A stretch of DNA of 64,000 nt from Candidatus Buchananbacteria bacterium. GTDB lineage: Bacteria > Patescibacteriota > Patescibacteriia > 2-01-FULL-39-33. This document shows positions 7,739-62,356 of the stretch, piece by piece (position 1 is the stretch's first letter; each line of letters opens with the position of its first letter). Where the stretch lies: positions 6,393 to 70,392 of the forward strand of contig CAISTG010000004.1 of NCBI GenBank assembly GCA_903888345.1, in the 5' to 3' direction. The notes beneath the pieces were generated by a model that worked only from the letters and a program-made list of their open reading frames with translations, was not told the DNA's origin and made no database searches. The position numbers were made by a program, and so were the translations under genes.

Positions 7739-8857
7739 TTACTGGAGTTCGATCTCCACCAACCGGCGATTAATGTCGTACTTGTACTGCTCCTGGCATT
7801 TCTTGGTCAGGGCGTCTTGGAAGGCCAGAACGTCTTCCTTGGTGGTCAGTGAAGCGAGCGTCCATAGCACCCAGCGGTAGGGGCTATCGCTAGGGAGATT
7901 GCGATCTTCGGTCAGAAACTCCAGCTGGCCAAACGGATCAAGCTGTAGCAACTTCACATAGATGGCGTCGCAGAGTTCTCCACGCTCGAGATACTCTTCG
8001 TGCGCGTGGCATTCAAGATTCTCTGCCACTTCGATGAATTCCCGGAGCGTCTTCGTATCTGTGATTTGCTCATGTGTCTTGACGACACGCAGAGTTGCTG
8101 CGCGCACCAATGCGTAGGCAGCAATTTCCCATTTCATGGAGCTTTTGTCCCAGCCAAAGGGATGCTCAGAGAGCTCCTTTTTTAATACATTGATTTCGGC
8201 TAGTGTCGTCTGTTCCGCGATTTCCTTGGAGAAATCATCGAAGAGCATCGCGGTCACGGTGAGGTGGCTTTTCATGGACTTGATGACAGCTCGCCTGGTG
8301 ACGAAGTTCGGTGCCGATTTGACGTAGGCGTTCGACGCTTCATCACTGAAGCCATCGCGTCCGACCAGTTGCCAGGCGCGGTGGAATTCGTCATAGCTGG
8401 AAAAGTTGTCGGTATAGACGACCGTGCGACGCGCCCAATATTCGGGCAGCCGTTTGCTGGTCCAGTACTTTTCCAGGTCGTCCAGCCGCAGGTAGTAGAG
8501 GCCGTAGGAAACGTTTTTTGACGCTAGAGCGTCGAACAGATTGGCGCCCTTGGTTTCGCAGAGGGCTCGAGCGGTTTCTACCCACTCTTTTTCTTCTGCT
8601 TTCTTGGCGCGTCTTTCTTCTTCATTCTGACGCGCCGCTTCCTGTTGGCGCAAGGCCCAGGCGGCCAACTCTTGTGCTGCGGCTTCCTTTTTGTCCTTTT
8701 TGGCCTGTTCGTACTCGTCTTGCTTCCGCTTTTTTTCTTTGATTTCAGAAAGGGAACATTTGACAATAATCGCGGCGATAGCAGCAACTACGACAAGGAT
8801 TCCCAGAAAAAACAGACAGATTCCAGTCATGGAACTCATAATCTTTCTCCATGCCAC
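7739..8857 (-). CDS. Hypothetical membrane-anchored protein (GC-rich cassette I1)
   Basis: The ORF opens with GTG at 8857. A better start is the ATG at 8839, which has a GGAG SD, giving MSSMTGICLFF with a TM helix. A KE-rich coiled-coil segment follows, then about 230 aa with no recognisable domain. Codon third positions are strongly C/G, unlike the neighbouring genes. Confidence 0.6.
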   Translation of the reverse strand: MAWRKIMSSMTGICLFFLGILVVVAAIAAIIVKCSLSEIKEKKRKQDEYEQAKKDKKEAAAQELAAWALRQQEAARQNEEERRAKKAEEKEWVETARALCETKGANLFDALASKNVSYGLYYLRLDDLEKYWTSKRLPEYWARRTVVYTDNFSSYDEFHRAWQLVGRDGFSDEASNAYVKSAPNFVTRRAVIKSMKSHLTVTAMLFDDFSKEIAEQTTLAEINVLKKELSEHPFGWDKSSMKWEIAAYALVRAATLRVVKTHEQITDTKTLREFIEVAENLECHAHEEYLERGELCDAIYVKLLQLDPFGQLEFLTEDRNLPSDSPYRWVLWTLASLTTKEDVLAFQDALTKKCQEQYKYDINRRLVEIELQ

Positions 8858-11079: not shown

Positions 11080-14000
11080 TTATCTGACTTTATCAGTCAA
11101 GATGGTGAAAATTGTTTTGATACCCTTGTCGACGTTTTTGATGTTTTTGAGACTAACGGATTCATCGCCGACATAACCCATCATTTCATTTTTGGCGGCA
11201 TTAAAGGAGAAGTGCATATCGCCTAATTGCTCGGCGGCTAGATGGTTGATTGGCGGTGGTACATCAAAATTTAATTCGCCACCCTTGTAAGAAATATTCT
11301 TGACAGCGAAATCGGCAGCGTCGGCAGCTGAGTATTCTTTGGCAACGCCGAAGTGACGGAAGATACTATCTAATGATTTGCCAATGCCCCGTTCGTTATG
11401 AGTATTGGCCATCAAGTCAGTTACTTTTTGCCATTCACTCATAGTTGCAGAGTCTTGGTAACTCTCGACATTAGTTGGTAGCGGGAAAATTTCAGAAGTT
11501 GGTGCAGTGACTTGTTCGACGCCGGTAGTAGCGAGTGTTTCGGAGGTACCGCCGGTCCCAGTCATTAAGTGCTCAGTTCTTAGCGGACCAACGGGTAAGT
11601 TATCGGGAATATGACCAGTTGCGTTGGCGGCGTGAATAGCTGCTTCCTGCGATTGTTGTAAGGCATGGGCGGCGGCATCGGCCGATAATCCTTGATTATG
11701 TAGTTGGCTCATCGTGTCATAGGCCTGTTGATTCAGATGGATGCCTTTGGGTAGATGTTCGACAACCTGTTGATTGAAAGCATTATTGGCTTCGATATGT
11801 TTAACCGCTTCGGCTGATAAATTACTGGCTTGCTCGGCGAAGGATTCCTTATTAAACATTCCACCGATTACTTCGTTGAAGTGATCGTTCTGGGAAATTT
11901 TTTCTAAGTCAGCAGGAGTTAAAATATCAATGTTAGCCCCTTTATGTAAGCCAAAGAGTTCGGGATTTTTAGCAATTTGATCTTTGATGTTATCAATGAT
12001 GTGAGTTTCTCGGCCGTCAGAAATACTGGGGGCATGTAAATGATTAATTAAGGTATCAACTTTTTTATCAATGAGGCCCCAGAGGTGAGGAGACTTGTCG
12101 CCATGAACGCCTCGCATTTCTTTAATGGCATCGGCAAGTGGATTAACTTTCGGAGCTTCGATAACCGCGGCAGCAGCACCCGTTGGGTGTGCTTGTTCTA
12201 CTGCGGCAGCAGCAACATTAGGACTGGTCGGAGTGCCGGCCTCAATGGGAGTCCCCCAATGTGAATGAATATAATCCATGGCCACATGACCAATGGTTGG
12301 TGCCAGCGCCGCCGCTAGACCAACGGTAATCATGCCACCATATTTGAGTAAATCCTTTTTTTGTTTATCTGAAAGAGCGCTATCTTTGAGGGTTTGTAAT
12401 TTAAGCGCTAGTGATTCTGGTGTGTCATTATCGGTGATTTTCATGGCTTCATAATCATTATTGCCCCACTTTTTTTCACCAATTGCTTTAAAAGCTCTTT
12501 CTGCTGTCCACATGGCCATCGGAACACGGGTAATCCACATTTCACGAGCCGCAATAGTTCCAAGGCCCAGTAAGACAGCCGTGAACGCTCGTTGATAATT
12601 ATTACCGCCACCCTTAACCATGAAGCCACTAATGGCTGATGTGACTTTTTGTGGAAACTTTAATATTCGACTATCAGATCGTTTAATTTTATCTGATAAT
12701 CCCTCGATTGCAGTCATTTCTTTCTCGAATGTTTTCTGATCAATTTTCTGAAGTGTTGATAATGATTTAATAATATCAGCACGTTTTTCTACTTCAACAT
12801 CAGCTAGTAATTCATCATTATCTTTAATAAAATCATTGAAGACAAATTTGCGATTGCCGTTGATACGTTTTTGTTGGGTGATGGCCGCTTCAGTAAAAAA
12901 TTGTTTTAAGAAAGCCTCCCGACTGTCGGGATCAGCTTCGAGGGCAGCTCGCATTTTGGCATACTTGGCATCAACTAGCTTCTTTTGTCTGCGGTCGGTG
13001 ACAAAATTATCAACCACTCTTGCTCCGGCGATTGTTGCCACGGTGCCGATACCGGCAGTGGCGCCAGTTAAGAGAGCGGCGGCCCCAACACCGGCACCAA
13101 TGCCAAGATAAACACCAAATTTTGTTAGTTTTGCTTTACGAGCCGCAGCAATGTTTGTGCTGGCCTCATCAGCGGTAGTGACATCAGCTAAACGCCCAGC
13201 ATTGATTTCAATCAAAGCTAGTTTTCTTAATCGTTCTTCCTGGTTACTGATTAAATCCTCGGCTTGTTCTAAGGTTAAGCCGGTTTCTTTGGCTAGTTGA
13301 TTGGCTAATAATTTTTGTTTAGTTTGGTGATCAAGGCTTTTGCTGTCGAGTAGGGTAGCTAATAGCTCTTTACGCAAAGCTTCTTGTGAAATTGTTTTCT
13401 TGCCTTCGGGCGAGAAAATATCTTTGATAGTTTGACTACCTTTCATGATAAGCTCTTCAACCTTACTGGATTTAACAAATTCAGCTTGAGCCGCAGCTGT
13501 AGCCTTAATTTCATCTTCAGTGAGAATACGTCCTTCTGTCCTGGATGTTTTCGCTAAAAGTTCTCTGAGTTGGGTTTGATTAGAGATGTTTCTAATGTTA
13601 GGTTGGTTCTCGGCTTTAGTGGCCTTTGGTTTACGTTTTGGTTTGGGGATTGGCGGGGGAGTGGCGTTATCTTCCACGATAGGCTCTGTTTCTTCTACGG
13701 CTGGGGCCGGTGTTTCTGCCGGTTCAACGGTTGACTCTACAGCTGGTTCATTTGCCTGCTGTTCTTCCCATTGATTATGCCAAACAAACATAATGCTATT
13801 ATATGTTTCATAATCCTCTTCAATTTCGATTTGCAAAACAGTTAAAATATCAAGAGTCTCGTTTGGTTTTAATTTTTCAGTGGCCTTTTTTAATCTTTCT
13901 TCAAATCTCGCTTTTATATCAAGCAACTTTTGTCGCATTCGTGGATTAATTAGATCTTTATTGTCTTCGTATAACTGATTAAATTCTCCAATCTTGGCGC

Positions 14001-15261
14001 TAACTATTGCCGCCCTTAATCTAATCTCTTCTTTTTCTCCAGCAGAGATGATTGTCTCGGGCGCTGGTGGAGGAGCAGTTTCGTGATTTGTTGGCGCAGT
14101 AGTCCCTGCGGCTTCGCGCTCAGCATCAGCGACCATTCTTTCAAAATCAATAGTTGGTGTTGTTGTTGGAACTTCGCCAATTGGTTTGGGATTGCGACTT
14201 TCCCAATTAAAAAGCTTTTCATCGACTACGTGATGGTGCCATTGTTGATAGCCCGGTTCCTGTTCTCCAACTGGGGCACTCTGGGTTAATTGTGAGATAT
14301 AAGCGCGGCGGTTATTTTCCCACTCAGTTAACGTCATTATTTTTTTCTCCGTCGTTTTTCTGGGTTCAGTTGGCGCTGGATTGGGTTGGTTTTCAGTTAG
14401 GGGAGGCTGTTGGTTAACTGGAGTTTCGACTACATGAATCTGTGTGTCAGTAGTTAATGGTGCAGTTGTCTCACTATTTAATAGTGGTTCTGGAAGGGGT
14501 GCTTCTGGTATTGGAGCGACGTTTGAATTTTCAAGTGGCGGCACTGGGGGTTTCGGCGCCTTGGCCGTCTCGATTATTTTTCTAACGATGCGCATTCTCT
14601 CTTCGCCTCGTTTTAAGATATCTTCAAATTCTCTAGCAGCATCAGCGGCAGTTACTTCACCTTGATTTTTACGATAAAGAATATCATAAGTGGTGCGTGT
14701 TTCATTAGCAACAAAATCTCGATAAGCATCACCTAATTTAAATTTTGGATCTACTTGAGATAAATCTCTTATTATACCTGCATAGGTTTTAAATTGGGTA
14801 TTTACTCTATTTTGCATGTCCGTCATTCTGGCAAGGTCAGCTTCAGATTCAACTGACATTGGGGGGCGCTCTGGGGTTGGTTCAATTGGTGCCGGATTGG
14901 ATTCAACTGAAGTGGTCACATCAGCTAAACGTTCTTCAGTGGTCGCGACTAAGCCTTGCACTTGCTCGGCATTTTTTTCGATTATAGCGGCATCGGCTGA
15001 TTCCTCGATCGGTTCAGTTGGCTGTAACTCTAAAACAGCGGCAGCGGCTGTTTCAGCTTGCTGCTGCTTTTCTTGGGCGGCTTTAATAACTTCAGCAACT
15101 GGCGCTGCTTCTTGCTCCCCGGACGCATTAGCGTTAGCTTCAGCTGCTTGACGTGCTTTAATTTCAGCTTGATTTTTTATCCATTCCTGCTGTGCCTTGA
15201 GTCCATCCTCAGGGCTTTCGCCTTTATCCTTAGTGAGTTTTTTTCTCTTGTTATCCGCCAT
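11080..15261 (-). CDS. Giant (1393 aa) hypothetical surface/membrane protein
   Basis: One uninterrupted ORF. Contains Pro/Ala/Glu-rich low-complexity stretches, coiled-coil segments and a glycine-zipper hydrophobic segment (GVYLGIGAGVGAAALLTGATAGIGTVATIAGA). No catalytic motif recognised. Native (AT-rich) codon usage. Confidence 0.7.
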   Translation of the reverse strand: MADNKRKKLTKDKGESPEDGLKAQQEWIKNQAEIKARQAAEANANASGEQEAAPVAEVIKAAQEKQQQAETAAAAVLELQPTEPIEESADAAIIEKNAEQVQGLVATTEERLADVTTSVESNPAPIEPTPERPPMSVESEADLARMTDMQNRVNTQFKTYAGIIRDLSQVDPKFKLGDAYRDFVANETRTTYDILYRKNQGEVTAADAAREFEDILKRGEERMRIVRKIIETAKAPKPPVPPLENSNVAPIPEAPLPEPLLNSETTAPLTTDTQIHVVETPVNQQPPLTENQPNPAPTEPRKTTEKKIMTLTEWENNRRAYISQLTQSAPVGEQEPGYQQWHHHVVDEKLFNWESRNPKPIGEVPTTTPTIDFERMVADAEREAAGTTAPTNHETAPPPAPETIISAGEKEEIRLRAAIVSAKIGEFNQLYEDNKDLINPRMRQKLLDIKARFEERLKKATEKLKPNETLDILTVLQIEIEEDYETYNSIMFVWHNQWEEQQANEPAVESTVEPAETPAPAVEETEPIVEDNATPPPIPKPKRKPKATKAENQPNIRNISNQTQLRELLAKTSRTEGRILTEDEIKATAAAQAEFVKSSKVEELIMKGSQTIKDIFSPEGKKTISQEALRKELLATLLDSKSLDHQTKQKLLANQLAKETGLTLEQAEDLISNQEERLRKLALIEINAGRLADVTTADEASTNIAAARKAKLTKFGVYLGIGAGVGAAALLTGATAGIGTVATIAGARVVDNFVTDRRQKKLVDAKYAKMRAALEADPDSREAFLKQFFTEAAITQQKRINGNRKFVFNDFIKDNDELLADVEVEKRADIIKSLSTLQKIDQKTFEKEMTAIEGLSDKIKRSDSRILKFPQKVTSAISGFMVKGGGNNYQRAFTAVLLGLGTIAAREMWITRVPMAMWTAERAFKAIGEKKWGNNDYEAMKITDNDTPESLALKLQTLKDSALSDKQKKDLLKYGGMITVGLAAALAPTIGHVAMDYIHSHWGTPIEAGTPTSPNVAAAAVEQAHPTGAAAAVIEAPKVNPLADAIKEMRGVHGDKSPHLWGLIDKKVDTLINHLHAPSISDGRETHIIDNIKDQIAKNPELFGLHKGANIDILTPADLEKISQNDHFNEVIGGMFNKESFAEQASNLSAEAVKHIEANNAFNQQVVEHLPKGIHLNQQAYDTMSQLHNQGLSADAAAHALQQSQEAAIHAANATGHIPDNLPVGPLRTEHLMTGTGGTSETLATTGVEQVTAPTSEIFPLPTNVESYQDSATMSEWQKVTDLMANTHNERGIGKSLDSIFRHFGVAKEYSAADAADFAVKNISYKGGELNFDVPPPINHLAAEQLGDMHFSFNAAKNEMMGYVGDESVSLKNIKNVDKGIKTIFTILTDKVR

Positions 15262-17244: not shown

Positions 17245-18066
17245 ATGCCTGACAACGACACGAACGCCAACGTCAACGTTACCGAAACCGCAGCGACTCA
17301 GAAGGCTTCATGGAGCGAGCGGAGCAGGGCCTTTTTCCGCAAGATCAACCTGAGGAAGGTTGCTCCCATTGCCATGTTCGCCAGCTTCACCGTTTTGCTC
17401 CTCGTCGCTCTGATCCTGATCGGTATGCAGGCCGCCCAGGAAGTGAACTCAGTCAAAGCGACGGCCAATCAGGCGCTGTCTTTGGCCGCAACCACCTCCG
17501 ATCGGGTCGACACCGCCGAACAGGGGATTGCCCTACTCGCCGGAGAAAATCAGGCGCAGAATCAGCGCTTGACCGCCGTGGAACAAGCGACAGTGGTCGC
17601 GAGCGAAACTGCCACTGCTGCTGTCGCCAAAGCGGACACAGCCAATTCGCGGTTGAACGCGAAGAAGAAGGCCGATAACCAGTTGCACAAGCAGCATGTC
17701 GCCTACATCCGCGGTGCCAATCCTGACAGTCCGATTGCCAAGAAGAGCAACGCTGAAATCGAGGCGTTGCTCAATGATGGCATCTGGAACATCGAAGGCG
17801 ATATTCAGACCGAGTTTGATCGGCTGATCGCTCTCGCTGCTGCCCAGGCCAAGCAGACGGCCGACAGTGTCGTGGAGACTGCCAAGCTGACCGCCACCAA
17901 GTTGGAAGCGGTTGACGTGACGGCGACAAAGGCGCTTGCTGCCGGCGACACCGCAGTCTCGGGGATCAAAGTGATCGCCGATCAGCCTAACAAGCTTTTT
18001 GGCAAGTCGGTCAACGGCGACTCCAAGAAGACTCTCCAAGAGCTGGTGGCCACTTACTCCAAGTAA
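17245..18066 (+). CDS. Membrane-anchored Ala/Thr-rich coiled-coil protein (GC-rich cassette I3)
   Basis: 273 aa with one TM helix (MFASFTVLLLVALILIGM) followed by an Ala-rich helical ectodomain. About 55% GC. The antisense ORFs at 17310..17678 and 17533..18039 are GC artefacts. Confidence 0.65.
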   Translation: MPDNDTNANVNVTETAATQKASWSERSRAFFRKINLRKVAPIAMFASFTVLLLVALILIGMQAAQEVNSVKATANQALSLAATTSDRVDTAEQGIALLAGENQAQNQRLTAVEQATVVASETATAAVAKADTANSRLNAKKKADNQLHKQHVAYIRGANPDSPIAKKSNAEIEALLNDGIWNIEGDIQTEFDRLIALAAAQAKQTADSVVETAKLTATKLEAVDVTATKALAAGDTAVSGIKVIADQPNKLFGKSVNGDSKKTLQELVATYSK

Positions 18067-28824: not shown

Positions 28825-29454
28825 TTACCAATTGCCCGGGTATTTCTCTTTGCCCTCAGGCGTCGTCAGGTACTTCTCATCAATCACCTCCAGTATCTGC
28901 TTATCGACGTTAACTAGACCGATGCGATTGGTGCTGGTGCACAACACCTTAACCTCATCGCCGCCAACACCGCGGAAGCAGTCGAAGGCCGCCGATGCCG
29001 GGTGCTGGTGGTGATCAGTGTCCGTCACCACCGCCACCCTTTTGACACCAACCTTGATTGCCAGTAGTGCAATGATCGTGCCCAGCGGCATCTCCTCCTT
29101 AGCATACTTAACTTTGTTGGCCTGTGCCTGCCCGGATGGCGGAACCATCAAGTCAGTCAGGACGACGTCGAAGTTGGGGACGATTGTGAAGTCTTTGGTG
29201 GCCTGATTTTTGGCTAGCTGGTAAGCTGCCTTTTTGTTTGCCTCCTCTTCGGTAGCGCGCCAGGGATTGAAATCACCGAACAGCTCTTTCATCTTGGCGT
29301 CAATGGCGTCAAAGTCAGTCACCGGCAGTAGTGCTGCCTGCGCTTCGTCATAGGTGCCGACGACCGTCAAGTTGTGATCCTTGAGAGTAACTTCGGCAGC
29401 GGTACGATGAGCGGCACTGTCATCAAACACGAGGATGTTGAGTTTCGTTGTCAT
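28825..29454 (-). CDS. CheY/flavodoxin-like alpha/beta-fold protein, divergent REC-like (cassette I4, gene 5)
   Basis: Has ILVFDD (acidic pair), a possible phospho-acceptor context (DFDAIDAKM or FDVVLTDLMVP) and a later RVAVVTDTDHHQH strand. The long inserts are not canonical for a receiver domain. AAAGGAAG SD. Confidence 0.35.
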   Translation of the reverse strand: MTTKLNILVFDDSAAHRTAAEVTLKDHNLTVVGTYDEAQAALLPVTDFDAIDAKMKELFGDFNPWRATEEEANKKAAYQLAKNQATKDFTIVPNFDVVLTDLMVPPSGQAQANKVKYAKEEMPLGTIIALLAIKVGVKRVAVVTDTDHHQHPASAAFDCFRGVGGDEVKVLCTSTNRIGLVNVDKQILEVIDEKYLTTPEGKEKYPGNW

Positions 29455-40443: not shown

Positions 40444-41124
40444 ATGTCGACAAAGAAGAGCCTCAGTTGGAAGGAAGCGGGTCGGAATGTGGCAGCGCTG
40501 GTAGCGTTGTTTACCTTGGCCAGCCGGGTCTTGAAAAAGATTAAAGTCGGTCCGGAGATCATTGATTGGTTGACGGGCTCCGGTAAGGATTTATTCAGCC
40601 AGAAGCTGATTGAACTGGGTACTGAGTTTCAGCTCCAAGCCCCTATTTTGCGGGCCGAAATCGATACAAACATTGATCCGCGTTTGCCCATTGGTGGGGC
40701 GACAATCGATACACATCGGCGCCAGGGAAGGGTGGTGATCGAAAAGCGGGTTGATGGCTTGTATGTAGATGGACATAAGGTCGTTTTGTATCGATCGCCC
40801 AGGCAAATGTACGGCAACAAAATCAATGGCCGTGAATTACGTATTGAATTGGATGGTCAGACCCATGATCGATCAGCACTTTCAGCGAATGTTGCCGACT
40901 TCCTATTTGCTAACCAAGAGTATCTGCCGGAAGATTGGAAGAAGAAAGATGAAAACGATAAAACCATTTTTATCTTGTTTTGGGGCACCATCTATCGACG
41001 CTTTGATCGCAGTCCCTGCATTCGAACTCTGTGTTGGTGTGATGGTCAGTGTCATGAGAATTGTTACTGGCTCGGCCTTGATTGTTACTCCAACTTTTAT
41101 TCAGCAGTGCTCGAAAATAAGTAG
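40444..41124 (+). CDS. Hypothetical protein with Cys-rich C-terminus (GC-rich cassette I6)
   Basis: 226 aa with a C-terminal CIRTLCWCDGQCHENCYWLGLDCY. C/G-ending codons. It sits between lemA and htpX. Confidence 0.6.
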   Translation: MSTKKSLSWKEAGRNVAALVALFTLASRVLKKIKVGPEIIDWLTGSGKDLFSQKLIELGTEFQLQAPILRAEIDTNIDPRLPIGGATIDTHRRQGRVVIEKRVDGLYVDGHKVVLYRSPRQMYGNKINGRELRIELDGQTHDRSALSANVADFLFANQEYLPEDWKKKDENDKTIFILFWGTIYRRFDRSPCIRTLCWCDGQCHENCYWLGLDCYSNFYSAVLENK

Positions 41125-46023: not shown

Positions 46024-46647
46024 ATGACTGAGTCGATGCGGCAAAATCCGAATGCCAGCGAGTTTCCAATGTGTACTGCTCGACCGATTGAGGAGCCACA
46101 GGGACAAGTATATTTTGATCAGTTTTGTCAGTCGATGCCGACCTGGAAGAGAATTCGACCTAATCGACGGCTTGAGCTGATGGGAGAGTTCCGGCGTGCG
46201 CTTCAATCAAGACACATGCCGATTGGTGATTTGGCCAATCGGGTTATTGAAGCTAACGGCTTGAACCTGGAAGTACCCGCGGGCATTAAACGGGTGAAAT
46301 TTATTAAGACTACACTGAAAGAAATGACCGGGAAAGATGAAGCGGATTACTTCGAAATCTATTCTCACTTCATTGGTCTCCAAAATTTCCCGCTGGCCGT
46401 TTGGTTGAATTTGCGCCTACAGTATCTGGACCAACCGCATAATGAGTGCCTTTACACTTTGTCGCGTTATGAAGCTATCAATGTTGATGGCCGAACTATC
46501 GATTGTGTTTTGGCAATCGATAATGATCCTTCGATTGGTAAGTGGCTTTATGGTCGGTCGATCGGTTATTTTGCGGCTCCCACGGTATTTTCCGGCGACT
46601 CGCTTTGGTTGATACCAAGTGTGCCAATGCCAAAACTGGCAACCTAA
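46024..46647 (+). CDS. Hypothetical protein, 207 aa (GC-rich cassette I7, gene 1)
   Basis: GAGGAG SD and C/G-ending codons. No recognisable motif. Confidence 0.6.
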   Translation: MTESMRQNPNASEFPMCTARPIEEPQGQVYFDQFCQSMPTWKRIRPNRRLELMGEFRRALQSRHMPIGDLANRVIEANGLNLEVPAGIKRVKFIKTTLKEMTGKDEADYFEIYSHFIGLQNFPLAVWLNLRLQYLDQPHNECLYTLSRYEAINVDGRTIDCVLAIDNDPSIGKWLYGRSIGYFAAPTVFSGDSLWLIPSVPMPKLAT

Positions 46648-49062: not shown

Positions 49063-49332
49063 ATGGCTAACAAATTTACGGCTGAACAAGCACAAGAAAC
49101 TGGGGAGCGGCTGGGAATAGATTGGACAAAATTTGATGTCGAACAATTTCGGATGGGAATGGACGTTGAATTGGAACATGGTACTCGCGATCCTAAAACC
49201 AACGTCACTAATGACGGACCATTTGTCACGGGAAAAATCGCTTTGGCTCATCTTAATGAATTTCCCGATTATTATACCCGCCTAAAAGCGATGGAAGAGG
49301 AAGCCGAAGCCTTTTGGGGAAAAGAAGACTAA
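49063..49332 (+). CDS. Small conserved hypothetical protein, 89 aa
   Basis: Acidic, helical protein. A terminator hairpin at 49344-49376 follows. Confidence 0.5.
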   Translation: MANKFTAEQAQETGERLGIDWTKFDVEQFRMGMDVELEHGTRDPKTNVTNDGPFVTGKIALAHLNEFPDYYTRLKAMEEEAEAFWGKED

Positions 49333-49376: not shown

Positions 49377-49405
49377 TTGACAAAGTTGATTTTTCTGCGT
49401 ATAGT
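49377..49405 (+). promoter_or_regulatory. Consensus sigma70 promoter (TTGACA-17-TATAGT) for cassette I8
   Basis: Reads aTTGACAaagttgatttttctgcgTATAGT. Confidence 0.6.
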
Positions 49406-49462
49406 GTCAACAGCTCTTTTACAGCAACCACGGTCCATATAACCAAATAGGAGGCACAGATT

Positions 49463-50938
49463 ATGGACTTTCACCAACCGGAACCGGCCGCAGTTAGTCA
49501 CACCGTTTTATTGATTTTTTCGGTCATTTCTATGAGCACTATGATGGGTACTCTCTTGTCACAGTGTGATTCTAGTCCGCCGGTAATTACTCTTAGTCCG
49601 GTTTCTCAGGTAGCCAATCCTGGTTCGCGGGTGGAGTTCGCGGTTGTAGCCACTGGGGGTCGCGCTTATTCTTGGAGTCATGACGGTCAAGAAATTTCCG
49701 GTCAGACGGAGGCGTCGCTGGTCTTTGACCAGGCCGCTCAAGAAAATGAGGGCAGCTATACCTGCTTGGTTTCTAACAATCAAGGCTCGGTCGTGACTGA
49801 ACCAGCTACCCTGGATGTTAATGATCCGCCAGTGATTGTCGAAAACTTTACGTCGCAAACAGTGACCGAGGGTCAGGAGTTAATTTTGACTGGTCAAGTT
49901 AGTGGCACAGAACCGTTCACTTATCGGATTTTACACAACAACAAATTAGTGGCGGAAACCGCTGAATGTCGTTGGCGTATTGAGCAGGTAACTCTGGATG
50001 ATATTGGTCCCTGGCGTTTTGCCGTGACTAATGTTACAGGGATTTCACTTCGCTCAGATCCGGTCAATGTGATCGTGAAACCAATTATTATTACGCCCGA
50101 AGGAGAGGGCGAGGGTGAAGGTGAGGGCGAGCCGCCGATCGAGGGTGAGCCGGAACCTATCTTGTGTCAGCAGAATTTCTGTGCGACAGCCAATGATGGC
50201 GATAATGCGAGTTCGCCGATTGATAAGAGTTTTTGTGAATATTTCGCTGATCTATTTACAAATGCTCCGCGAGACCTATTGGGTAATTATGTAAAGTTTG
50301 TTAATCTGTTCGATCCTAGTAAGCCGGGCGATATGAATGGTGCTTCATCCATTGACAAGTCTCAGGGTGAAGATAAAATGACAATTCAGGTCGGGAGTAA
50401 CCATATTCCTGATTGTGCCTACGAACTAAAATTGATCGAGGCAGTATTGCTAAAGCGAGATTTCTGCGAGTGTCACAGTGGTTTAAGTCATAAGCTGGTT
50501 CATGAGGCCTGGAATTTCAATATGGCCCGACTATCGCAAGATTTTGCTGGCTTGTATTGGACTTTGGCCGATGCAGTTTTGCCAGGCTTCAAGCAGATCT
50601 TGTGTGCTCATATGATGATTGGTAATGGCAATATCCAGTATTATAAGGATGATGTTCTGGTGCCGTTAACTGATCCGGAAAATGCCAATGCCAATAAAGT
50701 TATCGGTTATGGCTCAGGTGGCTTGGTTCAAGGAATCGCTTTCCTGCTGGGCAAAAATATTGCCAACTCTCGTTTGAATTTAGCGGATTATGCAACTTTG
50801 CCCGAATACTTTGGTCCGGATGGCGATGCTGATGGTGATGGAACAACTAATGCCGAAGAGTATGATGCTTTTGGATCTACTCCCGAGGCTTATGTGGCAG
50901 CAGCCCTTGATCCCGAAATCCATCTTGATAAGAAGTAG
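49463..50938 (+). CDS. Secreted or membrane-anchored protein with two Ig-like (I-set-type) domains, G/E-rich linker and a C-terminal domain bearing a DxDxDG Ca-binding-like motif (GC-rich cassette I8)
   Basis: AGGAGG SD. Domain 1 has W...DGQ and the EGSYTCLVSN Ig signature. Domain 2 runs FTSQTVTEGQELILTGQ...GPWRFAVTN. Linker PEGEGEGEGEGEPPIEGEPEP. Tail GPDGDADGDGTTNAEEYDAFG. Confidence 0.6.
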   Translation: MDFHQPEPAAVSHTVLLIFSVISMSTMMGTLLSQCDSSPPVITLSPVSQVANPGSRVEFAVVATGGRAYSWSHDGQEISGQTEASLVFDQAAQENEGSYTCLVSNNQGSVVTEPATLDVNDPPVIVENFTSQTVTEGQELILTGQVSGTEPFTYRILHNNKLVAETAECRWRIEQVTLDDIGPWRFAVTNVTGISLRSDPVNVIVKPIIITPEGEGEGEGEGEPPIEGEPEPILCQQNFCATANDGDNASSPIDKSFCEYFADLFTNAPRDLLGNYVKFVNLFDPSKPGDMNGASSIDKSQGEDKMTIQVGSNHIPDCAYELKLIEAVLLKRDFCECHSGLSHKLVHEAWNFNMARLSQDFAGLYWTLADAVLPGFKQILCAHMMIGNGNIQYYKDDVLVPLTDPENANANKVIGYGSGGLVQGIAFLLGKNIANSRLNLADYATLPEYFGPDGDADGDGTTNAEEYDAFGSTPEAYVAAALDPEIHLDKK

Positions 50939-50951
50939 AACTTTAGATCCC

Positions 50952-50987
50952 TGAGCGGGAGGAGAAATTCTTCCGCTTTTTTATTTC
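50952..50987 (+). terminator. Intrinsic terminator of cassette I8
   Basis: AGCGGGAGGAGAA-att-CTTCCGCT followed by TTTTTTATTT. Confidence 0.6.
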
Positions 50988-51023
50988 AATATGTATGATA
51001 AGATATTTATATATAATTAATTT

Positions 51024-51852: not shown

Positions 51853-53337
51853 TTATCTAACTTTAATTTTCAACTTTTCTTTTTCTTTGGGAATAACCAC
51901 CTGAGTACCATCAGGCGAGAATTCAGCTTCGAGTAATTGTTTCAAGTTGGCACTGCCAGTTTCTTCTCCGTGGAGAATAAAGATGGTTTGACCAGTTGCT
52001 TCAACTGAAAGAACGGCCTTGGCGTAATCAACGAGTTCAGAGCAATCAGCATGAGCCGAAAAACTTTGAAACAATTTGATTTGCGCTTTGATAATAACTT
52101 CTTGGCCATTCATATTGACTTTGGCAGGATTGCCTTGAAGTTTTCGGCCTAAGCTTGCCGGTGACATGTAGCCAACCAAACAAACAATAGTCTGATCACT
52201 GGGCAAATTGACGCGCAGGTGATTTCTCACGCGTCCCGCATCACACATTCCAGATCCGGAAATAACAATCAGTGGTGCCATTTTTCCGGCCAACTGGATT
52301 GATTCCTCATAGTCGGTAATAAATTGGACGTAAGGATTTTCTTTGTTAAACGGATTAAAGTCCAGCGTGTGCTTGTTTTTGAATGATCCTAGATCCCAGT
52401 ACTTGGCATAGACTTCAGTCAGCTTTACCGACATCGGGGAATCCAAGTAAATTGGAATGTCGGGTATTTTACCAGATTTCATGGCGAGCGTGAGCAAATA
52501 GATCAATTCCTGACTTCGTTGCAGAGCAAAGGAGGGGATGATAATCTTTTTGCCGCTTGAAGCGGCTTCGGTAATCGTCGCAAACAATTCATCAACTTCA
52601 GGTTGACGTTCCGGATGATGCTTATTTCCGTAAGTCGATTCGGTAAACCAGCAATCGAGCGGTTCTTTGACTACTGCCGGCGGATAAAGAAGCATACCTT
52701 CTTGCCGGCCCAAATCGCCGCTGAATCCTAAACGTAGGACTTTTTTGCTTTTCGGTTCCGTCATCGTCAAAACGGAAATGGCTCCACCCAAAATATGTCC
52801 TGAGGCATAAAACTTCAAAGTCATCTGATTAGACAGTTTGACTTGCTCTTTGTAGGTCAAGCCAGATTTCATAATCAAATTAATCGCCTTGGCGACATCA
52901 CGTTCCGTAAACAAGGGCCCAGTTTCTTTCGAGGTGCGGTCTTTGTTACGGGGGCGTTCATCGGCATGTTGGCACTTTCTTTTGGCCAACTCGCGCTGAA
53001 TCTTAAAAGAGTCAGCCAGCATGATAGGAATTAGGTCAGCCGTTTGTTTGGTACAGAGCACTTTTCCTTTAAAGCCGTTATTTACCAAAAACGGCAACAG
53101 GCCGACATGGTCAATATGAGCATGGGTGATGATGACGTAGTCAACTTTAGCCGGATTAATGCTTTTGAGCAGTTTGGAATTGTTGGCAAAAAAGTTTTTG
53201 ACATCGCCCTGAACTAGGCCGACATCAACCAGAATAGTCGTAGTCTTTTTTCCGCAGCTGACCGAAATTGCAGTGCAAGAACCGGTCAGATTGTCCGATG
53301 TGGCTAGGCCGCCGAGAAATTCCAGCGATACATCCAT
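51853..53337 (-). CDS. MBL-fold beta-CASP family ribonuclease (RNase J / CPSF-like)
   Basis: Metallo-beta-lactamase motif ITHAHIDHVG and downstream His/Asp ligands, followed by beta-CASP and C-terminal RNA-specificity regions. Confidence 0.65.
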   Translation of the reverse strand: MDVSLEFLGGLATSDNLTGSCTAISVSCGKKTTTILVDVGLVQGDVKNFFANNSKLLKSINPAKVDYVIITHAHIDHVGLLPFLVNNGFKGKVLCTKQTADLIPIMLADSFKIQRELAKRKCQHADERPRNKDRTSKETGPLFTERDVAKAINLIMKSGLTYKEQVKLSNQMTLKFYASGHILGGAISVLTMTEPKSKKVLRLGFSGDLGRQEGMLLYPPAVVKEPLDCWFTESTYGNKHHPERQPEVDELFATITEAASSGKKIIIPSFALQRSQELIYLLTLAMKSGKIPDIPIYLDSPMSVKLTEVYAKYWDLGSFKNKHTLDFNPFNKENPYVQFITDYEESIQLAGKMAPLIVISGSGMCDAGRVRNHLRVNLPSDQTIVCLVGYMSPASLGRKLQGNPAKVNMNGQEVIIKAQIKLFQSFSAHADCSELVDYAKAVLSVEATGQTIFILHGEETGSANLKQLLEAEFSPDGTQVVIPKEKEKLKIKVR

Positions 53338-58690: not shown

Positions 58691-60430
58691 TTATCGTTTT
58701 TCAGTAATCTCTTGCTGGATATTGGCGATGAAATCAGTGAGCTTAATGATTCCTTGATCGCCATCACTGCGTTTACGTACCGCCACTGATTCAGACTCAA
58801 CTTCCTTTTCGCCAATAACGAGGATATAGGGAGTTTTTTGTTTTTCGGCGTTGCGAACGCGTTTACCTAAAGATTCATTACTATCATCTAATTCGGCGCG
58901 TAAATCAGCTGTCTGCAAATCGGCTAAAACTTTACGACCGTAGTCATTGAATTTTTCTGATACTGGAATGATAACGATTTGGTTGGGCGAAAGCCAAGTT
59001 GGGAAAGCGCCGGCGAATTGTTCAATTAGTAAGGCGATGGTTCTCTCGTAGCAACCAATTGACGAACGATGAATGACAATTGGACGCTCTTCTTTGCCGG
59101 CTTCATTGATGAAAGTCATGTCAAATTTTTCGGGTAAGGCAAAATCAATTTGCACGGTAATAATCGTGTCTTCTTTGCCATAGACGTTCTTCATTTGAAT
59201 ATCTAATTTCGGACCATAGAAAGCCGCTTCGCCTTCAACTTCTTCGTATTGTAACTTATTTTTATCGAGAATTTTTTTCAATGTTTTTTGTGATTCTTCC
59301 CAAGCTTCTGGTGCATCAATATATTTACCCTTTTTATTGGCGGGATCCCATTTAGAAAAACGGTAAGTAAAATCTTCTAGCTTCAAGGTTTTCATGACGT
59401 AATTAATCAAATTAAGCACGTCATCAAATTCTTTTTCTAATTGGTCCATGCGACAAATTAAATGCCCCTCGGCTAGAGTGAATTGACGCAAGCGGATTAA
59501 GCCATGCATTTCACCAGATTCTTCATTACGGAAAAGAGTCGAAGTCTCATTATATCTGACTGGTAAATCGCGGTAGCTATGTAGGGTGGAATTGTAAATC
59601 ATGAATTGGAACGGGCAAGTCATGGGGCGTAAGGCCAGTTCATCGCCGGAGCCATCAATAATAAACATGCCATCACGATAATGATCCCAATGGCCAGAGA
59701 TTTTATATAAATCACTCTTAGCCATGAATGGTGTCATGGTTAACTGGTAACCACGTTTTTCTTCTTCGTCTTCAATCCAACGTTGTAGAATTTGTTTGAT
59801 TTTCGCGCCCTTAGGGGTTAAGAGGGGGAGTCCTTGGCCAATTGGTTCGGAGGTAATAAATAATCCCAGTTCACGACCCAATTTATTGTGATCGCGCTTT
59901 TCCGCTTCCTCTAACATTTTTAAATATTTTTGTAATTCGTCCTTGGTTGGAAAGGCCGTGCCATAAATGCGTTGTAACATTTTATTTTTGGCATCACCAC
60001 GCCAATACGCTCCGGCGGCACGTAGTAATTTGAACTGCCCTAATTCTTTGGTGGTTTCAGCGTGAGGGCCACGGCAGAGGTCGGTAAAGTCACCAACGGT
60101 ATAAAAACTGACGGTAGATTCGCCCTTAGCTTCCAAATCATTAATTAATTCTTGCTTGTAAGGCTGATCGGACATTTTCTCCAGTGCCTCTTTAATCGGT
60201 AAATCAAATTTCTCAAACGGTAATTTGCGTTTGATGATTTCTTCCATCTTTTTGTCGATGGCTTTGAGGTCTTCGGGAGAAAAAGTTTTTTCACCTAAAT
60301 CAAAGTCATAATAAAAGCCTTCGTCGATAGTTGGGCCGATGGCGAATTTAACGTCACCAAAAAGTTCGCGTACGGCGTAAGCCAAAATATGCGAAGTGGA
60401 ATGGCGGATTTTGTCTAATTGTTCGTTCAT
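58691..60430 (-). CDS. thrS: Threonyl-tRNA synthetase (short form lacking the N-terminal TGS domain)
   Basis: N2 editing-like and class II core motifs. An anticodon-binding domain and a Zn-site HxxxH/C context are present. 579 aa. Confidence 0.9.
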   Translation of the reverse strand: MNEQLDKIRHSTSHILAYAVRELFGDVKFAIGPTIDEGFYYDFDLGEKTFSPEDLKAIDKKMEEIIKRKLPFEKFDLPIKEALEKMSDQPYKQELINDLEAKGESTVSFYTVGDFTDLCRGPHAETTKELGQFKLLRAAGAYWRGDAKNKMLQRIYGTAFPTKDELQKYLKMLEEAEKRDHNKLGRELGLFITSEPIGQGLPLLTPKGAKIKQILQRWIEDEEEKRGYQLTMTPFMAKSDLYKISGHWDHYRDGMFIIDGSGDELALRPMTCPFQFMIYNSTLHSYRDLPVRYNETSTLFRNEESGEMHGLIRLRQFTLAEGHLICRMDQLEKEFDDVLNLINYVMKTLKLEDFTYRFSKWDPANKKGKYIDAPEAWEESQKTLKKILDKNKLQYEEVEGEAAFYGPKLDIQMKNVYGKEDTIITVQIDFALPEKFDMTFINEAGKEERPIVIHRSSIGCYERTIALLIEQFAGAFPTWLSPNQIVIIPVSEKFNDYGRKVLADLQTADLRAELDDSNESLGKRVRNAEKQKTPYILVIGEKEVESESVAVRKRSDGDQGIIKLTDFIANIQQEITEKR

Positions 60431-61642: not shown

Positions 61643-62356
61643 ATGAGTAAAACAACCGCAAAGGCCCTTTTGGCTGCACTCGGAATCCTAACGGAAGAAG
61701 AGATGAAAGAATGGACCGAAGGGCCAGGAGAAGTGAAGGATTTCTTGGCGGCTCGTGTCGCTGAGAAGATGGCGAACACCTTCTGTGTTTCGCTGTCGGA
61801 CAACGAGCTTCAGCAGCAGTTCCCGCAGTTCGCCGATCGTCTCGTTCCCTGGCGCAAGCTGGCGGCTCTGATGGGCTACACTGGCCATATTGTTTGGCTC
61901 GTCAAGCAGGGCTTCACGCTGAAAAAGCATGCCCCGCTTGTCGGCCCCTGTTACGATAATCTCGGCTATCTCCAGGACTGGAATTTCGATGACAATCCTA
62001 CCGATGATTGCCTGGTATTCTGGGTGCCCCGTTTGGCGGAAAACAGCACGGGCAAGAACATCAAGGCAATGGAAGCGCACCGCGCCGAACTCAAGAAGCG
62101 CTATGAGCTTCCTGGCGACCATGCCACGTATTTCGGTAGCATTCAGCTCCAGTTCGCTCTCATTCTCGCGCATTTCAAGCGCACGGGTGAACGCGTACCG
62201 CTGAATTTCCTCTACATGGCGTCTGACTCCCTGAGCGCAGACGGCAGCCGTCTCATTGCTGGCCACTTCGGCGACTTTGGTCTCCACTGCCACTACTGGG
62301 GTGGGAATGGCTGCGACGATATCGGCTTCGTCCTCCTGGGGGTGGAGAAGCTCTGA
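61643..62356 (+). CDS. Hypothetical protein, 237 aa (GC-rich cassette I10)
   Basis: C/G-ending codons. The antisense 61688..62293 ORF is a GC artefact. A terminator follows at 62403-62440 (GGGACCTTGG-tcatcgta-TCGAGGTCCC then TTTTTTTATT). Confidence 0.6.
   Translation: MSKTTAKALLAALGILTEEEMKEWTEGPGEVKDFLAARVAEKMANTFCVSLSDNELQQQFPQFADRLVPWRKLAALMGYTGHIVWLVKQGFTLKKHAPLVGPCYDNLGYLQDWNFDDNPTDDCLVFWVPRLAENSTGKNIKAMEAHRAELKKRYELPGDHATYFGSIQLQFALILAHFKRTGERVPLNFLYMASDSLSADGSRLIAGHFGDFGLHCHYWGGNGCDDIGFVLLGVEKL

Follow-up and report, generated by a model that had tools for sequence, protein, structure and literature searches.

A predicted surface protein of Candidatus Buchananbacteria joining I-set-type immunoglobulin domains to an uncurated head module with EF-hand-type loops

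The DNA considered here is a stretch of 64,000 nucleotides, called the window below, from contig CAISTG010000004.1 (assembly GCA_903888345.1, Candidatus Buchananbacteria bacterium), and the subject is a complete open reading frame (ORF) at 49463-50938 on its forward strand. Read directly from the sequence, with the stop codon included in the coordinates, the ORF encodes a protein of 491 aa that carries an N-terminal hydrophobic segment, two immunoglobulin (Ig) domains, an acidic Gly/Glu/Pro spacer and a C-terminal module of an uncurated family, referred to as the head. The arrangement suggests an anchored Ig stalk presenting a Ca2+-dependent binding head, an adhesin-like and vertically inherited surface protein of the Candidate Phyla Radiation (CPR), and this reading is given a probability of about 0.55. 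An earlier note on this DNA had delimited the ORF with exactly the same ends, and NCBI and ENA have an identical protein (P0001) recorded on 4 contigs.

The window is taken to be a fragment of a CPR/Patescibacteria chromosome. It holds housekeeping genes for threonyl-tRNA synthetase (ThrRS), S1, PlsX, MurI, RNase Y, an RNase J-like protein and a CCA/poly(A) polymerase-type enzyme, and its ThrRS shares 84% identity with that of "Parcubacteria group bacterium ADurb.Bin326", while two proteins labelled "Patescibacteria group bacterium" follow at 75% and 63%.

The target gene looks like a single-gene transcription unit, since a promoter-like site, a Shine-Dalgarno sequence and a terminator-like hairpin flank the ORF. 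The sigma-70-type promoter-like site, TTGACA-17 nt-TATAGT at 49377-49405 (+), agrees with the consensus at 11 of 12 positions and is a consensus match only, the region holding 6 such sites against 4.3 expected by chance. The Shine-Dalgarno sequence AGGAGG, read directly from the DNA, lies at 49449-49454 (+), 8 nt 5' of the ATG. Both signals had been listed in the earlier note, and both were located. The intrinsic-terminator-like element occupies 50953-50988 (+), 15 nt past the stop codon, and consists of a hairpin at 50953-50978 with an 11-pair stem, including 5 GC pairs, followed by the T-run TTTTATTT. A second promoter-like site, TTGACA-16-TAAAAT at 50352-50379 (+), also agrees at 11 of 12 positions; it falls within the coding sequence, in the part for the head module, and is probably due to chance, given the same count of observed and expected sites.

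Membership in the Ig families was decided by a profile hidden Markov model score above the curated gathering threshold of Pfam (PF07679, PF13927 and PF13895). With the whole protein as query, Ig_3 (E=2.6e-17), Ig_2 (5e-13) and I-set (7e-11) each matched over two stretches, so that the Ig assignment, as judged by these profiles, is well beyond chance. Ig domain 1, of I-set/Ig_3 type, covers residues 38-121 (49574-49825, +) and passes all three thresholds when scanned alone, with 46.4 bits for Ig_3 (cut-off 30), 33.6 for I-set (23.7) and 32.2 for Ig_2 (27). Ig domain 2, a degenerate Ig domain at residues 122-208 (49826-50086, +), where a second Ig-like domain had indeed been proposed, is borderline in the same scan, reaching 27.1 bits for Ig_2 (cut-off 27), 26.2 for Ig_3 (below 30) and 20.7 for I-set (below 23.7). 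The earlier note had named an assignment to bacterial Big or Fn3 families as the outcome that would speak against its I-set proposal; no Big_x or fn3 family matched among the Pfam families even at E<=10, and the N-terminal domains are therefore of I-set/Ig_3 type. In a full-length AlphaFold (AF2) model computed from a 5-sequence alignment, residues 45-208 form a pair of beta-sandwiches at a predicted local distance difference test score (pLDDT) of ~80, and the top Foldseek matches of this pair are tandem I-set pairs (E 6e-12 to 1e-10, probability 1.00).

The Ig signatures W..DGQ and EGSYTC that had been picked out from the sequence are present in domain 1 as the core W71, followed by D74-G-Q, and as E96-G-S-Y-T-C101, and the strand F motif of domain 2 is degenerate (D-I-G-P-W-R-F). 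The proposed core pair of Cys and Trp holds as far as the Trp and the strand-F Cys are concerned and fails for the strand-B Cys, which domain 1 lacks. With one Cys per Ig domain (C101 in domain 1, C169 in domain 2), the canonical disulfide between strands B and F is impossible in either. An inter-sheet disulfide is common but not obligatory in the Ig superfamily, and it is likewise missing from the aligned Ig repeats of the phage proteins 9ncf_S and 9c2d_S.

The I-set type was thus borne out, but the description of these domains as eukaryote-like and rare in bacteria is misleading and overstated, as the nearest relatives by sequence belong to surface proteins of bacteria and to Hoc-like or tail Ig proteins of phages. 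Rarity in bacteria is hard to reconcile with the presence of Ig_3 in 29 of 60 bacterial proteins sharing this C-terminal module. A eukaryotic origin of the Ig domains by horizontal transfer could appeal to the matching Pfam I-set and Ig_3 models, which are largely built from metazoan sequences, and to the metazoan I-set pairs that are the structural neighbours in the PDB. With these pairs the domains share the predicted fold, the tandem layout, the core Trp and the motif D/E-G-x-Y-x-C. The eukaryotic I-set structures, however, reach only 17-24% sequence identity, compared with 40-47% for bacterial proteins; there is no canonical disulfide, just as in the aligned phage Ig repeats; the same Ig type is common in bacterial module proteins; and nothing points to a common recent ancestry. 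The metazoan structural matches reflect database content, since the PDB is dominated by eukaryotic Ig structures, and a eukaryotic source is accordingly regarded as extremely improbable.

Among solved structures, searches by sequence rank phage proteins first. The matches in the PDB reach E-values of 4e-45 for 9ncf_S and 2e-36 for 9c2d_S (Sf14 gp20), against 9e-13 for titin, and the PHROG matches are tail-protein and Hoc-like head-decoration families with E-values down to 9e-25. In Shigella phage Sf14 (9C2D), the protein gp20 decorates the capsid, is Hoc-like and has three Ig-like domains, and Hoc-like Ig decoration proteins have been proposed to serve weak adhesion (PMC11821841). The likeness to the phage Hoc-like Ig proteins (Sf14 gp20, PDB 9C2D/9C3A; T4 Hoc) extends to the I-set/Ig_3 subfamily without a B-F disulfide and to the shared pattern W..G..I.G.T.A.......D.G.Y.C.V.N..GS. 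Such matches would suit an Ig region taken from a phage, whether from a decoration protein of the Hoc type or from a tail Ig protein, or a gene that is a prophage remnant. The E-values against phage proteins, however, arise from the matching of several repeated Ig domains, and those proteins possess a capsid-binding domain but neither membrane anchor, GE spacer nor head module, whereas the gene studied here is chromosomal and syntenic with its relatives, has no phage genes nearby and encodes a head module without a match in PHROG or BFVD. Furthermore, the nearest relatives of Ig domain 1 among the retrieved proteins are cellular and carry the same head: the top matches outside the clade are P0069 (47% identity), P0064 (46%) and P0055 (40%). 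A phage source is thus held to be very improbable, and the eukaryotic-origin and prophage readings were both rejected on the evidence of identity, synteny and module. The database homologues come from bacteria and match these Pfam families too, and by sequence the Ig domains are best classed with the bacterial/phage, disulfide-less I-set/Ig_3 variety.

The C-terminal head module covers residues 234-491 (50162-50935, +), as defined by the profile family and an AF2 model, and is mostly helical with seven Cys, which are invariant within the clade. The C-terminal region of about 250 aa described earlier is present, and it is more than a tail: it is a discrete and conserved domain family without annotation. 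Neither Pfam, searched down to E<=10, nor NCBIfam or PHROG gave a match to it, and the region is common to proteins of very different architecture. A family profile (A1), constructed from a 14-sequence alignment and searched against 1.84 billion representatives, retrieved 554 cluster-50 representatives at E<=1e-3, 104 of them at E<=1e-30. The window protein is the seed of this family, and both of the loop motifs described below are conserved over the full-length match. The nearest module subfamily comprises P0007, P0047, P0063 and P0050, at 42-45% identity. AF2 on the A1 alignment predicts a mainly helical fold with small beta-hairpins (pLDDT 88.9, predicted template modelling score 0.88), for which Foldseek returned no match in the PDB (best E 0.65, TM<0.2) or BFVD. 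With ~550 sequence clusters, a cross-phylum distribution and no detected fold relatives in either database, this unannotated and apparently extracellular domain family is fit for a Pfam entry and for structure determination.

Residue conservation in the module was counted over 185 copies from 165 proteins. The best conserved element is a canonical EF-hand-type loop, loop B, at residues 455-466 (D-A-D-G-D-G-T-T-N-A-E-E; 50825-50860, +), which is followed by a helix. Conservation reaches 97% of the copies for each of D455, D457, D459, N463 and E466 and 91% for G460, in agreement with the 12-residue pattern of oxygen ligands at positions 1, 3, 5, 9 and 12 with Gly at position 6. The DxDxDG tail reported earlier is thereby located within DGDADGDGTTNAEEYDAFG (residues 453-471), and its DxDxDG is almost invariant across the family. 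Its suggested kinship with thrombospondin-type-3 (TSP3) or dockerin sites is not borne out, as no Dockerin_1, TSP_3 or TSP3_bac match appeared at E<=10 and the loop is a single contiguous one with Glu at position 12, the residue found there in EF-hands, whereas dockerin and TSP3 loops have Asp. The profile aligns loop B to the EF-hand loops of calmodulin and EhCaBP in the PDB, in matches that cover only ~19 residues, and no Pfam EF-hand family matched the module at E<=10. The second loop is interrupted. The tail is accordingly interpreted as a predicted EF-hand-type loop that aligns with EF-hand 4 of calmodulin (DIDGDGQVNYEEF). With this hand, and more loosely with the F-hands of dockerin, it shares the loop D-x-D-x-D-G-x-x-N-x-x-E, the aromatic residue and the helix. 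It differs from EF-hands, dockerin and TSP3 in the want of a Pfam match and in its setting, a 258-aa helical domain with a related second loop ~130 residues earlier that is broken by a beta-hairpin in most members.

This second element, the putative interrupted EF-hand-type loop A, lies at residues 290-321 (50330-50425, +) and runs D290-x-N292-G, a 19-aa insert and N313-H-I-P-D317-C-A-Y-E321, followed by a helix. D290, N292, G293, N313, D317 and E321 are conserved in 82-96% of the 185 copies, and N353 and G387 are further best-conserved positions outside the loops. On the strength of the sequence pattern, D290 and N292 read as positions 1 and 3, and the conserved residues that follow as positions 5, 6, 9 and 12, of a second EF-type loop. 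The insert, 19 aa here and 6-31 aa across the family by hmmalign, matches a hairpin that the model places at module residues 63-79. P0042 has, in three of its repeats, a contiguous 12-residue loop at the site of loop A, with the same helix after it (DVNGNTIPEERE-LAVI, DMNANNFPDAHE-LALL and DLNGDGLADSDE-FALL). In the hmmalign alignment all copies have at least 6 residues between the loop A halves, and contiguous forms were found by regular expression, in P0042 only; the split-loop reading is for this reason supported and not proven. The two halves may together form one Ca2+ site in the window protein, and Ca2+ binding by the head as a whole is suggested by the loop sequences.

The distribution of the module indicates how it is used. 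Among the matches listed from GTDB species genomes, 11 of 14 confirmed loci belong to Candidatus Hydrogenedentota and the other 3 to metagenome-assembled genomes (MAGs) labelled Nitrospirales or Nitrospiraceae; the loci listed have a GC content of 0.49-0.63, against 0.42-0.46 for the CPR loci. A profile search of a named-protein database gave a single organism name, a Pseudomonadales MAG, whose protein is a fusion of DJ-1/PfpI with the module. In 60 module proteins the partner domains include Ig_3 (29 proteins) and SGNH/GDSL hydrolase (10), together with EF-hand arrays, PASTA, PKD, a reprolysin-like peptidase, PA14 and dockerin, and the module is also fused to metallophosphatase. P0042, a metagenomic protein of 2051 aa, contains 13 tandem head modules and a C-terminal hydrophobic anchor. 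Two adjacent genes on one Hydrogenedentota MAG contig (L007, 3505-7260 and 7498-10623) both encode module proteins, and the head family is paralogously expanded in Hydrogenedentota. P0031 and P0046 end in dockerin/EF-like "NGD..I..SELLR.IQF.N" repeats.

The position of the module relative to the anchor is also informative. A C-terminal hydrophobic-plus-basic anchor is present in 98 of 175 module proteins, with a median module start at 8% of the length in those 98, and in 90 of 162 the start falls among the first 80 aa. It stands at the extreme C-terminus only in the CPR clade and a few others; P0134, for instance, has the order lipobox (FIGC), linker, module. The order in the CPR clade is thus reversed, with the anchor N-terminal and the module C-terminal, and the same topology of an anchor, a stalk or spacer and a far-end head is nonetheless kept.

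These architectures bear on whether the head could be an enzyme, such as a hydrolase or lyase acting on surface polymers, carried by the Ig stalk. Conserved polar residues outside the EF loops (N353 at 89% and a G-L-x-H motif), the hydrolytic partner domains, the GH10-like and discoidin proteins found near P0007, and the room for an active site in a confidently modelled 258-aa globular fold would all be compatible with catalysis. The top conserved positions, in contrast, are almost all EF-loop ligands or glycines; no likeness in sequence or fold to enzyme families was seen in Pfam, NCBIfam, PDB or BFVD; and a domain that is joined to many unrelated catalytic domains and occurs in 13 copies in one protein behaves as a binding module. 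Promiscuous fusion, tandem arrays and conserved positions that are mainly loop ligands favour a binding module, and a catalytic head is considered quite unlikely.

The anchor and the spacer complete the protein. The N-terminal anchor or signal comprises residues 1-35 (49463-49567, +), is hydrophobic at residues ~14-33, as had been seen from the sequence, and ends in the conserved L-S-Q-C35. None of the five clade members deviates at Q34 or C35, which lie within the consensus L-[S/P]-Q-C, and AF2 models residues 10-34 as a helix at low confidence. Compared with the lipobox [LVI][ASTVI][GAS]C, the site here has Gln at position -1, and residues 1-13 are free of Lys and Arg. The N-terminus may therefore be either a signal anchor or an atypical lipobox, and the export that had been suggested from the hydrophobic segment is plausible only, the segment itself being present.

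The spacer, residues 212-232 (PEGEGEGEGEGEPPIEGEPEP; 50096-50158, +), corresponds to the (GE)n linker described before and is predicted to be disordered (pLDDT ~30). It ranges from ~20 to ~100 aa across the five clade members, and acidic linkers of the GE type are seen in 27 of the 175 family members. Its synonymous codons are mixed (GAA/GAG and GGA/GGC/GGT) and Tandem Repeats Finder made no call for a tandem repeat at the DNA level, which argues against a recent slippage array. Within the 64-kb window there are no other GE linkers or DxDxDG loops and no second copy of the module.

The gene had been thought to sit on a GC-rich cassette. Its GC content is 0.467 against a mean of 0.426 (standard deviation 0.049) over 50 window ORFs, whereas its GC at third codon positions (GC3) is 0.435 against 0.425 (standard deviation 0.090); the GC excess reflects amino-acid composition, because it is confined to codon positions 1 and 2 and to the Gly/Glu/Pro linker. 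No direct or inverted repeats of note flank the gene. On a 34-kb contig (L002), PGM/PMM and MurI flank the gene of the homologue P0004 (50% identity), and the window and L002 share the gene order RNase Y, LemA, M48, YmdB, radical-SAM, methyltransferase, PGM/PMM, target and MurI. P0005 (45% identity) is encoded directly upstream of MurI and PhoH, on a contig that ends just upstream of the gene. With a typical GC3, no repeats and a locus conserved in relatives at 45-50% identity of the protein, the cassette was not confirmed, and a mobile or integron cassette or a recent island was ruled out; the gene is vertically inherited within the clade. The flanking orthologues are 63-89% identical against 50% for the target, which indicates that the target evolves faster than most of its neighbours. 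Two misreadings are thus corrected: the Ig domains appear to be bacterial/phage I-set-like and not a eukaryotic import, and the gene is not a mobile cassette.

An 89-aa DUF5661 gene (PF18905, E 9e-25) at 49063-49332 (+), between PGM/PMM and the target, is absent from L002 and is a lineage-specific insertion adjoining the target. Past MurI, a beta-CASP/RNase J-like gene at 51853-53337 (-) takes the place held by PIN-PhoH in the relatives (L002 10503-11942, L019 2730-4187), and this swap is a local rearrangement within otherwise kept synteny.

The deeper origin of the gene can be sketched from its relatives. As the composition is fully ameliorated, the Ig and head parts were probably acquired long ago, by the ancestor of the CPR clade. 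By sequence, both parts appear to stem from a single gene pool, shared with Hydrogenedentota-type surface proteins, and to have been rearranged, since the nearest relatives of Ig domain 1 outside the clade carry the head module and Ig_3 is present in about half of the module proteins surveyed. The direction of transfer is inferred solely from distribution, five CPR sequences against hundreds of others.

The Hydrogenedentota-type surface proteins (P0069, P0064 and P0055) have a signal peptide, the module, PKD, 4-7 Ig_3 domains and a C-terminal transmembrane anchor. They share with the clade the same head module (35-37% identity in tblastn with the clade homologue P0004), the Ig_3/I-set subtype (40-47% for Ig domain 1) and the logic of an anchor, a stalk and a far-end head. 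The protein described here differs from them in its reversed linear order, in having two Ig domains only and no PKD, and in the low-GC CPR genome that encodes it (~0.41-0.46 against 0.49-0.63). A bolder proposal holds that a CPR episymbiont took an Ig-plus-head toolkit from a Hydrogenedentota-like repertoire and uses the head for Ca2+-dependent docking onto cells that bear this module or its ligand, as a host-recognition adhesin that arose by mimicry of a host surface domain, the head being a new split EF-hand-pair fold; as a whole this is highly speculative and distinctly unlikely.

In the favoured reading, an anchored Ig stalk with a Ca2+-dependent binding head, the N-terminal hydrophobic anchor with its conserved L-S-Q-C would fix the protein in the membrane, and the two I-set-type Ig domains would form a rigid stalk. 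The acidic Gly/Glu/Pro spacer, whose length has varied in evolution, would separate this stalk from the head at the far end, a mostly helical and disulfide-rich unit of ~258 aa that Ca2+ would stabilise. The head would bind an external ligand, for example the surface of another cell or a polymer, and in an episymbiotic CPR bacterium the protein could plausibly serve attachment to a host or substrate. Export, orientation, binding function and ligand are all inferred. Ig-like/PKD surface proteins are among the most expressed genes of unknown function in Patescibacteria parasitising methanogens and have been proposed as host-adhesion proteins (PMC10936435).

Several points weigh against this reading. 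The full-length AF2 run gives the head a pLDDT of only 30-50, and the confidence in the head fold comes entirely from the 14-sequence model. Loop A has a 19-residue interruption and one extra residue ahead of its Glu, and may be non-binding for Ca2+ in this protein. Export and lipidation are uncertain, because the n-region lacks a net positive charge and a lipobox does not typically have Gln at position -1. The taxonomy comes from a pattern-limited scan of GTDB species genomes and covers the matches listed only, and ORF clustering over the 14 Hydrogenedentota- and Nitrospirales-labelled loci revealed no recurrent neighbour genes, as possible hints of a partner or ligand, besides module proteins.

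The protein could instead be a structural component of the envelope, a wall- or S-layer-associated spacer whose Ca2+-binding head attaches to the surface layer of the producing cell. Conservation and synteny across the clade give the gene a housekeeping-like character, and cell-wall genes adjoin it (PGM/PMM upstream and the glutamate racemase MurI downstream); stabilising a structure is a frequent role of EF-type loops; and among the matches listed the module is widespread in Hydrogenedentota, where many paralogous surface proteins have it. Its greater divergence relative to the flanking orthologues and its variable spacer are, however, more typical of outward-facing proteins, and the module lies at the anchor-distal end in most architectures. 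Moreover, homologue and profile searches did not find the module in other CPR lineages, which implies that it is not a general part of the CPR envelope. A structural envelope role is on balance unlikely.

By analogy, the putative anchored Ig-stalk protein resembles fibrillar adhesins whose ligand-binding domains are distal (RTX; Ig-fold) and the Ig-like/PKD proteins of Patescibacteria, in which an anchor, an Ig-like stalk and a Ca2+-dependent tip head recur. At 491 aa it is much smaller than the RTX and fibrillar adhesins, has no RTX repeats or type I secretion signal, and carries an unrelated head. It may therefore be viewed as a stalked surface binding protein, a familiar kind of system with an uncurated head family, and the findings do not overturn expectations. 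As host attachment in CPR/Patescibacteria is largely obscure and candidate surface proteins are few, a conserved gene of this size, with promoter-like and terminator-like signals of its own and five orthologues, offers a compact and testable candidate. Literature searches on ADurb.Bin326 and on Hydrogenedentes together with EF-hand returned nothing relevant.

Other parts of the window gave minor observations. The ORFs at 40444-41124 and 46024-46647 have no counterparts in L002. Four ORFs, at 7739-8857 (-), 17245-18066 (+), 28825-29454 (-) and 61643-62356 (+), are the real compositional outliers of the window, with GC of 0.52-0.58 and GC3 of 0.63-0.73 where the mean is 0.43 for both; Pfam gave no convincing family for any of them, with no match for three and only sub-threshold matches for 7739-8857, and, unlike the target, they may have been recently acquired. 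The ThrRS at 58691-60430 (-), 579 aa, is without the N-terminal TGS domain (PF02824) of its ~643-aa Clostridia homologues (~62% identity). Finally, an ORF of 1393 aa at 11080-15261 (-) matched nothing in Pfam at E<=1e-5. It has a high content of Ala, Glu, Pro and Gln, coiled-coil-like stretches and, in the middle part, several Gly/Ala-rich hydrophobic segments, and it may encode a large envelope or surface protein.

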